A stretch of DNA of 64,000 bases, taken from the NCBI RefSeq assembly GCF_003334305.1, contig NZ_QOWS01000013.1; one strand, written 5' to 3'. Position 1 is the stretch's first letter. The number at the start of each line of letters is the position of its first letter. The notes under the pieces are model-generated. The model searched no databases and had not been told where the DNA came from. It saw nothing but the letters and a program-made list of their open reading frames with translations. A program made the position numbers and the translations under genes. Below, in pieces: positions 33,471 through 43,884 of this stretch. This stretch comes from Escherichia coli (GTDB lineage Bacteria > Pseudomonadota > Gammaproteobacteria > Enterobacterales > Enterobacteriaceae).

Positions 33471-33582
33471 CCCCGGCTAGACCGGGGTGCGCGAATACTG
33501 CGCCAACACCAGGGAAATCTTGGCTGCGCCGTAAATTATTATGATGAGTTACAAGGGCACAGCACTGTTTTTCAGGCCGCAC
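33462..33582 (-). ncRNA. arcZ: ArcZ small RNA (RyhA/SraH)
   Basis: Minus-strand sequence GTGCGGCCTGAAAAACAGTGCTGTGCCC...GGCGCAGTATTCGCGCACCCCGGTCTAGCCGGGGTCATTTTTT matches ArcZ as I recall it, including the terminator hairpin and T-tract; its 3' end overlaps the arcB stop codon. Confidence 0.8.
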
Positions 33583-34353: not shown

Positions 34354-35078
34354 GTAAAAGCCGCTTAACGGTGTTTAGTTTCGTTCGCCGTTTTCTTTTG
34401 CGGTTAATGGTTGTCCTCGCCGTTTTCTGGGGCGGGGGCATCGCGTTGTTTAGTGTTGCGCCTGTTCCCTTCTCAGCGGTAATGGTCGAGCGACAGGTCA
34501 GCGCCTGGCTGCATGGCAATTTTCGTTACGTGGCACATTCTGACTGGGTCAGTATGGATCAAATCTCGCCGTGGATGGGACTGGCGGTGATTGCCGCAGA
34601 AGATCAGAAATTTCCTGAGCACTGGGGCTTTGATGTCGCTTCCATTGAGAAAGCCCTGGCGCACAACGAGCGCAATGAAAACCGTATTCGCGGTGCTTCA
34701 ACGATTTCTCAGCAGACGGCCAAAAATCTCTTTTTATGGGATGGGCGTAGCTGGGTACGAAAAGGGCTGGAAGCTGGATTAACGCTGGGGATAGAAACAG
34801 TCTGGAGCAAAAAGCGTATCCTGACGGTTTACCTGAATATCGCCGAATTTGGCGACGGTGTGTTTGGCGTCGAAGCTGCGGCACAACGTTATTTCCACAA
34901 ACCCGCGAGCAAACTTACCCGGTCGGAAGCTGCATTACTGGCAGCTGTATTACCTAATCCACTTCGTTTCAAAGTCTCCTCGCCATCGGGCTACGTGCGT
35001 AGCCGTCAGGCGTGGATTTTACGGCAGATGTATCAGTTAGGCGGTGAGCCGTTTATGCAACAACACCAGCTGGATTAA
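34350..35078 (+). CDS. mtgA: Monofunctional peptidoglycan glycosyltransferase
   Basis: 242-aa ORF with N-terminal TM segment and transglycosylase motifs ([12 protein letters not shown]); overlaps elbB stop by 4 bp; matches MtgA. Confidence 0.94.
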
Positions 35079-35707
35079 GCTTCGCGCGAAGTGAGGGCCA
35101 GCGTTTTGCTCTCACGAGGTTGCAGATCTTTCTGCAGGGCAATAGCCAGCGCCGGTTGGGCGATAAATCGTTTCCATAACCGCTCTTGCTTACGCAGACA
35201 ACACCACTTCGACCAGGTCGCCAGTGGAATCAATGTACTTTCACCAATGTTGTCACAGACGACCGGGATAACCTCTGACTCACTGATGCGGTGACAGAGG
35301 ATATTCTGCGGCTTCAGCGACATCGTCACGATACGGTTATCCTGCAAATAACGCTTCAGCTGTTTCAGTAGCTGGCGCAGTTGTGCAATGTCTTCTTCGT
35401 AACGGCATTGTTCAGCAAATTCGGTCAGCGTAATGGAGGGTTTGCCGTCAAAATCTGCAATCACATCGTAGACATAACCGGTTCCGCAATCCGTCTCAAC
35501 GGTACCGTGATAGCGCGGTATTCCACTCCAGTCTTTTAACCGGCGACCAAGATGCGCGTAGTACTTTAACTCACGGCGGATCTCTTTATCGCCACCATCG
35601 CCACGATGGTAGACAATCTTGATACAGCGTTGGGCATCTTCCGGATGCGCATAACATTTCCGATGTCTTCCGGTGCCCAGGGGACTTTGTTCAGATAAGC
35701 GAATCAT
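35075..35707 (-). CDS. yrbL: Uncharacterized protein YrbL (PhoP-regulated)
   Basis: ORF-track ORF 35075..35764 trimmed to ATG 35707 ([24 protein letters not shown]...), 210 aa; matches YrbL. Confidence 0.88.
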
Positions 35708-35757
35708 GCCATCTCCTGGAAATATTTTCTGACGATCTCCAGTATGGTCGATTAACT

Positions 35758-35774
35758 TAAACAAAACCTAAACA
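35758..35774 (-). promoter_or_regulatory. PhoP box (direct repeat TGTTTA-N5-TGTTTA) upstream of yrbL
   Basis: Minus-strand TGTTTAGGTTTTGTTTA lies 51-67 bp upstream of the yrbL ATG; yrbL is a known PhoPQ-activated gene. Confidence 0.6.
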
Positions 35775-35920
35775 ATGCCTCTTAAGGTTTTCTTAAGGTT
35801 CTTCTGAAAGTGAAAAGCGCACAAAATGTACAAATGACGTTGATTGAGAACGATTTCAGTACGTGATTTTCTTATTGTCGGGGGGAGTTTGAAGGGAGTT
35901 GTATGTCAAAGTGATGAAGA

Positions 35921-36193
35921 TTAATCTTCATCAAAACCAGAGTTAAAGAGGGCGATAACGGCGGCCAGTGCTTCCTCTTCCTGTGGGCCGGTCGCTTCAA
36001 CTTCAATCTGCCGTCCTTTGGCAGAATCCAACATCAGCAGCGCAATAACGCTGTTGGCTTCGGCCTCGGTGCCTTCGTCATTACGTAACAGCACTTCAGC
36101 GTCAAAACCCTGCATTAATTCAAACAGCTTCATTGCAGGCCGGGCATGCATGCCCAGCTTGTTTGTGATTTCAACAGTTTGCTTGACGGTCAT
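35921..36193 (-). CDS. npr: Nitrogen-PTS phosphocarrier protein NPr
   Basis: 90-aa HPr-like ORF (…[10 protein letters not shown]…); matches NPr/PtsO. Confidence 0.94.
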
Positions 36194-37044
36194 GGTTTAC
36201 GTTTTTCCAGCGTACGATGGCGTGACTGGACGTTTTTACCGCGCGAGCGGAAGTAGTCTGCCAGTTGCTCTGCAATATACACCGAACGGTGCTTTCCGCC
36301 GGTACAACCAATGGCGACCGTCAAGTAGCTACGGTTGTTGGTTTCCAGCATAGGTAACCATAGTTCAAGATAGCTTCGCGTCTGGTAGATAAAATTGTGT
36401 ACTTCTGTGTGGCGGTCGAGGAACGCGGCGACAGGTTTATCAAGACCTGTCATTGGACGCAGTTTCGGATCCCAGTGCGGGTTCGGCAAGAAGCGCACGT
36501 CAAAGACGTAATCTGCATCGATAGGGATACCGTGTTTGAAGCCGAAAGACTCAAAGACCATGGTCAGTTCGCGTTCACGTTTACCCAGCAGACGGGTACG
36601 CAGCATTTCAGCCAGCTCGTGAACGGACATTTCTGAGGTATCGACAATCAGATCCGCTCGCGAACGCAGAGGCTCCAGCAAATCGCTTTCTTTGTCGATA
36701 GCACTTTCCAGCGACAGGTTTTTGCTGGAAAGCGGATGCAGTCGGCGCGTGTCACTGTAACGACGAATTAAGGTATTACGGTCGGCATCCAGGAACAGTA
36801 GTTGCGGTGAGAAAGCGTCAGGCAGGTTACTCATCGCCTGTTCGAATATTTCTGGTGACTCCGGCATATTACGAACATCAATGCTGACGGCGGCAGAAAT
36901 CTCGCGATCGGCCAGAGTTCGAGCCAGATCGGGTAACAACACTACGGGAAGGTTATCCACGCAGTAAAAACCCATATCTTCCAGCGCACGCAGGGCGACA
37001 GATTTACCTGAACCTGAACGTCCGCTGACGATCATCAGTACCAT
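36190..37044 (-). CDS. rapZ: RNase adaptor protein RapZ
   Basis: 284-aa ORF with Walker A (GRSGSGKS); overlaps npr start by 4 bp; matches RapZ/YhbJ. Confidence 0.95.
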
Positions 37045-42906: not shown

Positions 42907-43884
42907 TTATTCAACGAGTATTGGCGATAACCAGTACAACATCGCCAGCCATACGATAAATCCGCCAGTTAATAATACCCCTACACCACGGCCCGGTTGC
43001 GGGGAGCGCCGCCAGCACAGCAACGCAAAAATAATGCTCACCAGCAACATCACGCTGTAGTCACGACTGTACGCCAGTGGATCAATCTCTCCTGGCGTTA
43101 TCAGCGCGGGTAAACCCAACACGATGACAATATTAAAAATGTTTGCGCCAATGATATTTCCGACAGCAATGTCGTTTTCACCTTTGCGAACCCCCGCTAT
43201 TGCGGTTGCCAGTTCCGGCAGGCTGGTTCCGATAGCAATTGCCGTCAGACCCATCGTCAACTCGCTGATGGCAAAGTAATTCGCCAGCACCGTGGCGTTA
43301 TCAACCACCATCCGCGTGGCCACTGGCATGATGATAAGCGCAATGCCGAGCCATAAAAACGCGACGGGCAATCCGCCGTCACGCGGCAGCTCTGCAAGCT
43401 GCTCTCTGGTCAGGCTGTCAGTCCCCTGACGTTCAGCCTGACGTGCAAGTTTAACAATGAACAGCAGCCATAGCACAGCCAGAAAGAGGAGAAAGATACC
43501 ATCGCTTCGACTAAGTTGTCCGTCATAGAGTACGGAACCGGCCACCACGCTGACCAACAACATTAAGGGTAATTCACGGCGTAGAACATCAGAATGGACG
43601 GTAAAAGGACGAACCAGCGCAGCCAGACCGAGGATCAGCAATATATTGATAATGTTTGAGCCGAGGGCTGTACCAACGGCTAAATCGCGTTGTTCGTGCA
43701 GAGACGCGGCAAGCGAGACGATGATTTCTGGTAACGATGTACCAATACTGACCACCGTCATGCCGATGATCAGCGGCGGGATGCCAAAGGTTCGGCAAAG
43801 AATAGACGCGGCAAAAACCAGGCGGTCGGCACTGTAAACGACCAAAAGTAAACCAACAATTAACAGTGCCGTAGCTAAAAGCAT
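42907..43884 (-). CDS. yrbG: Ca2+/Na+ antiporter-family inner membrane protein YrbG
   Basis: 325-aa polytopic membrane ORF; matches YrbG. Confidence 0.93.
   Translation of the reverse strand: MLLATALLIVGLLLVVYSADRLVFAASILCRTFGIPPLIIGMTVVSIGTSLPEIIVSLAASLHEQRDLAVGTALGSNIINILLILGLAALVRPFTVHSDVLRRELPLMLLVSVVAGSVLYDGQLSRSDGIFLLFLAVLWLLFIVKLARQAERQGTDSLTREQLAELPRDGGLPVAFLWLGIALIIMPVATRMVVDNATVLANYFAISELTMGLTAIAIGTSLPELATAIAGVRKGENDIAVGNIIGANIFNIVIVLGLPALITPGEIDPLAYSRDYSVMLLVSIIFALLCWRRSPQPGRGVGVLLTGGFIVWLAMLYWLSPILVE

Follow-up and report, generated by a model that had tools for sequence, protein, structure and literature searches.

The window, by which we mean the whole 64-kb stretch of DNA that was analyzed, is a piece of the Escherichia coli chromosome in which arcB–elbB–mtgA lie on the plus strand, followed by yrbL–npr–rapZ–ptsN–hpf–rpoN on the minus strand. 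The feature studied here is a short direct repeat in the npr–yrbL intergenic region. Approximately 1.3 kb around it is 100% identical to many complete E. coli genomes, and the stretch is present in all 5426 of them. The npr–yrbL spacer is identical to that of K-12 MG1655, whereas the window as a whole comes from a different strain.

The product of yrbL is named "PhoP regulatory network protein YrbL" in RefSeq. It matches PF10707 in Pfam and the NCBIfam equivalog NF007671 (399 bits), which covers residues 1–210 exactly, as in RefSeq. YrbL has no solved structure, and its similarity to protein kinases is weak. The genes mtgA (plus strand) and yrbL (minus strand) are convergent, and their stop codons overlap by 4 nt (35075–35078). 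The small RNA ArcZ was located between arcB and elbB (33475–33582, minus strand; Rfam RF00081, 120.8 bits). In E. coli, the stretch from the npr stop (35921) to the yrbL promoter contains no intrinsic-terminator-like hairpin (35800–35920, minus strand), and transcripts of the rpoN operon may read through into yrbL. A clear hairpin followed by a T-run is present between npr and yrbL in Citrobacter amalonaticus, Siccibacter, and Pluralibacter. The features of the yrbL control region are as follows.

35075..35707, minus strand: yrbL coding sequence (annotation; 210 aa, PF10707, kinase-like)
35707, minus strand: first base of the yrbL ATG (annotation)
35713–35717, minus strand: Shine–Dalgarno sequence AGGAG, 5 nt before the ATG at 35707 (CAGGAG-N5-ATG is conserved in the 12-locus alignment described below)
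35708..35739, minus strand: 5′ leader of ~32 nt, from the predicted +1 to the ATG
35739, minus strand: predicted +1 (G), carried over from S1 mapping in Salmonella (PMC3335776) and the conserved geometry
35741–35746, minus strand: −10 hexamer CATACT, invariant in 12 of 12 loci (the same hexamer and spacing are assigned in Salmonella, PMC3335776)
35747–35757, minus strand: spacer of 11 nt between the PhoP box and the −10 hexamer (sequence)
35758–35763, minus strand: PhoP half-site 2, TGTTTA (sequence)
35769–35774, minus strand: PhoP half-site 1, TGTTTA (sequence)
35781–35797, no strand assigned: PmrA/BasR box CTTAAG-GTTTT-CTTAAG, 6 bp upstream of the PhoP box (~ −42 to −58)
35814–35835, minus strand: 22-bp block ATTTGTACATTTTGTGCGCTTT, upstream of the PmrA box (~ −75 to −96), conserved among the 12 loci

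The direct repeat and the geometry of the yrbL promoter

The repeat TGTTTA-GGTTT-TGTTTA (TGTTTAGGTTTTGTTTA) occupies 35758–35774 on the minus strand and is the reverse complement of the plus-strand letters at 35758..35774 (TAAACAAAACCTAAACA). An earlier note on this DNA had described a direct repeat on the coding strand ~50–65 bp upstream of yrbL. It was indeed found there, 51–67 nt upstream of the ATG at 35707 and on the minus strand, from which yrbL is read; counted from the A of the start codon (+1), it extends from −67 to −51. The exact pattern TGTTTA-N5-TGTTTA occurs once in the 64 kb on both strands, whereas 0.01 matches were expected from 100 dinucleotide shuffles. Searching KGTTTA-N5-KGTTTA with one mismatch gave a single extra match in the window, within the yrbG coding sequence.

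A PhoP position weight matrix was built from the 37 footprinted Salmonella boxes other than that of yrbL in Table 1 of PMC3335776; yrbL was omitted because its inclusion would have been circular. With this matrix, the yrbL box scored 21.70 bits, where the maximum possible is 22.38. In the scan that the earlier note had proposed as a check, the yrbL box was thus the top site of the window, six bits above the runner-up (15.7 bits). The maximum scores of 300 dinucleotide shuffles averaged 14.7 bits, the largest being 19.3 bits, and none of the 300 reached the score of the yrbL box, which is the single site exceeding 8 bits in the yrbL upstream region. The runner-up, CTGTTAATTGTTGGTTTAC (43848–43866, minus strand), is located in the 5′ end of the yrbG coding sequence. 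Because of this position and its score within the shuffled range, it was treated as a chance match and rejected as a second PhoP site.

On the minus strand, the control region reads CTTAAG-AAAAC-CTTAAG aggcat TGTTTA-GGTTT-TGTTTA agttaatcgac CATACT GG agatcgtcagaaaatatttcc AGGAG atggc ATG. The −35 position of the yrbL promoter reads TAGGTT, has four mismatches, and falls inside the PhoP box. No sigma-70-like −35/−10 pair was found in 35500–36300, and the yrbL promoter therefore looks activator-dependent. The promoter has the layout of architecture I, defined in PMC3335776 by one box in direct orientation at 11–12 nt, i.e., one helical turn, from the −10 hexamer. A single box in direct orientation lies 11 nt above the −10, over the −35 position, and on the yrbL strand.

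Transfer of the Salmonella geometry would place the E. coli +1 at the G at 35739, and the PhoP box would then extend from approximately −35 to −19. On the MG1655 chromosome, where a coordinate equals 3384159 minus the window position, the box corresponds to 3348385–3348401, the ATG to 3348452, and the block at 35814–35835 to 3348324–3348345, and +1 would be expected near 3348420. The published distance of 2 nt between the −10 hexamer and +1 is unusually short, so an error of a few nucleotides is possible in either the assignment of the hexamer or the mapping of the start. The true yrbL start could thus be located a few bases further downstream of 35739, which leaves the conclusion on the PhoP box unaffected. 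The yrbL leader of E. coli contains a GATC (Dam) site at 35734–35737, approximately +3 to +6, which is not conserved in other Escherichia species.

Several known promoters can be compared with that of yrbL. The Salmonella enterica yrbL promoter drives the orthologous gene in the same npr–yrbL–mtgA context and, as described by Zwir et al. in 2012 (PMC3335776), shares the single direct box, the 11-nt spacer, and the −10 hexamer CATACT. As here, TAGGTT is at the −35 position with an 18-nt spacer, the leader is short, and a PmrA box is located next to the PhoP box. The two differ in half-site 1 (CGTTTA in Salmonella yrbL, TGTTTA here) and in the leader sequence, and half-site 2 reads TATTTA in some Salmonella genomes. 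The prototype boxes of mgtA and phoP in E. coli and Salmonella share the form (T/G)GTTTA-N5-(T/G)GTTTA, the direct orientation, the position over −35, and a class II-type activation. However, their distance to the −10 hexamer is 12 nt, compared with 11 nt in yrbL, and yrbL has a PmrA box in addition. The leader of mgtA is regulatory and 264 nt long, in contrast with the ~32 nt of yrbL. Salmonella pmrD shares with yrbL the "bi-fan" logic, in which a PhoP box is accompanied by a nearby PmrA box for repression. The two boxes are ~38 bp apart in pmrD and ~23–24 bp apart in yrbL, and the PhoP box of pmrD is a degenerate submotif (S2), unlike that of yrbL.

Conservation and allelic variation

The upstream regions of 12 yrbL loci (Escherichia species, Citrobacter, and Salmonella arizonae) were aligned, and identity to the window was calculated for each element, as listed below.

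−10 hexamer: 1.00
PmrA box: 0.95
Block 35814–35835: 0.94
PhoP half-sites: 0.89–0.90, with the flanks of the box at 0.47–0.62
Spacer between the PhoP half-sites: 0.87
Spacer between the PhoP box and the −10 hexamer: 0.62
Other flanks: 0.46–0.50

The 11-nt length of the spacer between the box and the −10 hexamer is invariant in all 12 Escherichia, Citrobacter, and Salmonella loci. Further syntenic orthologues were collected by a protein search followed by contig look-ups. The same layout of box, 11 nt, and a CATACT-like hexamer was found in S. enterica, Siccibacter, Superficieibacter, an Erwinia sp., and Cedecea, as well as at an Enterobacter hormaechei locus for which the neighboring genes are not listed. 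Altogether, the half-sites, the spacing, and the −10 hexamer are kept in at least eight enterobacterial genera. In Pluralibacter, the PhoP box is degenerate, and in the Erwinia sp. and Cedecea (L023 and L025), the PmrA box is inverted and displaced.

Within E. coli, the first base of half-site 2 (35763) is polymorphic, being T or C, as exemplified by loci L015–L018. Among the 5426 complete E. coli genomes, the 32-mer allele of the window, with TGTTTA-N5-TGTTTA, was found in 3234. Two alleles with CGTTTA in half-site 2, TGTTTAGGTTTCGTTTA and TGTTTAGATTTCGTTTA, were found in 845 and 1195 genomes, respectively, so that at least 38% of the complete genomes have CGTTTA at this half-site. The GTTTA cores are intact in all three alleles, which together account for 5274 of the 5426 genomes, and (C/T/G)GTTTA was already permitted as a PhoP half-site by Zwir et al. 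(PMC3335776). The perfect repeat is one allele among several, and the "canonical" repeat is therefore strain-dependent. The earlier note's description of the box as canonical is right for the strain of the window but does not extend to E. coli in general.

In E. coli Ecol_AZ161 (L014, NZ_CP019012.1), an insertion element of the IS66 family interrupts the −10 hexamer of yrbL (CATAC|), at ~2440–2500 of the locus, corresponding to ~35742 of the window. The insertion parts the PhoP and PmrA boxes from yrbL.

Control of yrbL by PhoP and PmrA

Minagawa et al. are said to have been the first, in 2003, to report yrbL as one of the Mg2+-stimulon promoters of E. coli in which a PhoP box is situated near −35. 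The yrbL PhoP box is already published and is an ordinary member of the PhoP regulon of E. coli and Salmonella. Shigella lies phylogenetically within E. coli, and the 19-mer tTGTTTAggtttTGTTTAa of the window is identical to the yrbL site of Shigella flexneri 2a 301, with no site-level difference. A yrbL promoter fragment of this strain that contains the 19-mer is shifted by phosphorylated PhoP (PhoP-P) in an EMSA (PMC5775216). yrbL is one of 11 Shigella operons confirmed by EMSA and β-galactosidase assays, and deletion of phoPQ lowered its mRNA to 0.02-fold, i.e., ~50-fold (PMC5775216).

In Salmonella, the yrbL site TCGTTTAGGTTTTGTTTAA belongs to the footprinted set of PhoP boxes (PMC3335776), as was sought in the comparison with published footprints that the earlier note had suggested. 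A single yrbL start was mapped there by S1 analysis, 27 nt downstream of the box center and with a 32-nt leader. Its signal appears in wild-type cells at 10 μM Mg2+ but not in cells mutated in phoP (PMC3335776). The earlier note had held that a start lying upstream of the repeat would speak against its proposal, and in Salmonella, the closest mapped orthologue, the start is downstream of the box. Salmonella yrbL is the earliest-transcribed PhoP target, yet its mRNA level is the lowest of 20 targets (PMC3335776, PMC4196223). An E. coli yrbL reporter goes up upon PhoP induction with low sensitivity and noisy transmission, and its response to PhoP is weak and noisy compared with other regulon members (PMC13215669). 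The matrix score (21.7 of 22.4 bits), the conserved layout, and the published Shigella and Salmonella data all bear out the proposal that yrbL is a PhoPQ target.

The second box at 35781–35797 consists of tandem half-sites of the form CTTAAG-N5-xTTAA(T/G), in accordance with the PmrA half-site definition (PMC3973317). CTTAAG-N5-CTTAAG has its sole match in the window here, where 0.06 were expected. Both in E. coli and in Salmonella, yrbL is reported to be bound and repressed by PmrA (PMC2681069, PMC3335776, PMC4196223, all citing Zwir 2005). From its position at ~ −42 to −58, PmrA would probably repress by steric or α-CTD interference.

Here, we propose that the repeat serves as the PhoP box for yrbL transcription in E. 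coli and that it mediates class II activation with damping by PmrA, a reading to which we assign a probability of approximately 95%. The sequence, uniqueness, geometry, and conservation of the box are results of this analysis; PhoP binding and dependence, the Salmonella start, and repression by PmrA are taken from the literature. PhoQ senses low Mg2+ (and also antimicrobial peptides or acid pH) and phosphorylates PhoP, and a PhoP-P dimer would bind the two TGTTTA half-sites head to tail. PhoP at the box would stand in for the absent −35 contact and recruit the sigma-70 RNA polymerase, an activation of the class II type that corresponds to "architecture I" of Zwir et al. 2012. The class II contact of PhoP has been demonstrated for mgtA only; for yrbL and the other architecture I promoters, it is a prediction (PMC3335776). 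We infer this contact at yrbL, as well as the exact E. coli +1. Since the box lies over the −35 position and no usable −35 hexamer is present, PhoP is expected to recruit the polymerase by class II contacts. Transcription would begin just 3′ of the weak −10 hexamer CATACT and give the ~32-nt leader before the ATG at 35707. PmrA-P bound at the box 6 bp upstream would damp the activation by PhoP, completing a PhoP/PmrA "bi-fan."

Another regulator of the OmpR/PhoB family might be the main user of the box, with the dependence on PhoP being indirect. A second member of this family, PmrA, does bind the yrbL control region, and the conserved block at 35814–35835 bears a loose resemblance to OmpR/RstA half-sites. 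However, the match to the PhoP matrix is near-maximal, PhoP-P shifts the Shigella fragment with the identical 19-mer, the orthologous site of Salmonella is one of the footprinted boxes, and PmrA has a separate box of its own, all of which make an indirect effect very improbable. The view that the repeat arose by chance in A+T-rich intergenic DNA and plays no part in regulation is scarcely credible: short hexamer repeats do arise by chance and a one-mismatch relative lies within the yrbG coding sequence, but 0.01 copies are expected per window, 0 of 300 shuffles reach the matrix score, the half-sites, spacing, and −10 hexamer are retained in different genera amid diverged flanks, and binding and regulation data have been published for yrbL.

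The repeat could also be read as the coding sequence of a longer YrbL, since the longest open reading frame (35075..35764, 229 aa) starts at TTG 35764, within half-site 2. This extension is not conserved. In-frame stops occur 5–16 codons upstream of the ATG in Escherichia albertii, C. amalonaticus, and Salmonella, and the upstream alignment contains 1-nt indels. Furthermore, AGGAG is located 5 nt before the ATG at 35707, RefSeq and the NCBIfam equivalog cover exactly residues 1–210, and the +1 (mapped in Salmonella, predicted at 35739 here) is downstream of the TTG. A start at TTG 35764 was rejected on these grounds, and we regard a coding function of the repeat as virtually out of the question.

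With the repeat taken as the PhoP box, the earlier note's view that it confirms both the strand and the start of yrbL is borne out by the box only in part. The strand call follows from the direct orientation of the box together with the conserved −10 hexamer. The start at 35707 is the right one, but it is established by the in-frame stops, the indels, the position of +1, and the AGGAG sequence, and not from the box alone. For annotation, the box fixes the strand, promoter, and start codon of yrbL. It is also usable as a positive control, or as a near-consensus PhoP box for matrix calibration, and the split into alleles and the conserved upstream block may help those who model the regulon. Beyond annotation, its significance is slight, and RefSeq already names the gene after PhoP.

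The conserved block upstream of the PmrA box

Nothing about the PhoP box is new, and the upstream block at 35814–35835 is the sole opening for novelty at this promoter. Its consensus in Escherichia, Citrobacter, and Salmonella is ATTTGTACATTTnGTGCkCTTT, and its conservation is stricter than that of the PhoP box, although the sequences flanking it in the 12 loci do not align. The block can also be recognized as TGTACA-N5-GTGC-kCTTT in Siccibacter, Superficieibacter, Pluralibacter, and Enterobacter hormaechei. Both the window and E. coli genomes contain it only once, which rules out a repeated element. Nor is it the npr terminator, because the hairpin of that terminator, seen in C. amalonaticus, Siccibacter, and Pluralibacter, is located upstream of the block.

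No Rfam match was found between npr and yrbL at E ≤ 1, the only hit being ArcZ, further away, and folding of the npr–yrbL spacer gave no signal of RNA structure (z = −0.09). A GUAC/GUGC hairpin of 4 bp is conceivable in the block, but it was dismissed as too weak and without compensatory changes. A sigma-70 promoter was rejected on the basis that no sigma-70-like site was found in 35500–36300, and a sigma-54 promoter on the basis of a spacing that does not fit by eye. Comparison with the consensus sequences of OmpR, RstA, MlrA, AtoC, CRP, MarA/SoxS, TyrR, and ArcA gave partial half-site likeness only and did not yield a regulator for the block.

The conservation of the block makes it a candidate binding site of a third yrbL regulator, an assignment that we offer tentatively and consider rather doubtful. 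If it is correct, the yrbL promoter would be a three-input integrator, and the block would provide a handle on the function of the kinase-like YrbL.

Distant homologues of the YrbL family with ~50% identity are encoded on three metagenome contigs (L026, L027, and L028) in lipopolysaccharide-type neighborhoods, and two paralogues are located on one of these contigs. The neighboring genes include a Kdo-kinase-like PF06293 gene, GT4 and GT2 glycosyltransferases, and Wzy_C. Such surroundings hint at the cell envelope as the target of the kinase-like YrbL family. A YrbL fragment that is 99% identical to E. coli was also found on a 420-bp contig labeled Tannerella forsythia ATCC 43037 (L013, NZ_JUET01000135.1), which most likely represents E. 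coli contamination of the Tannerella assembly.
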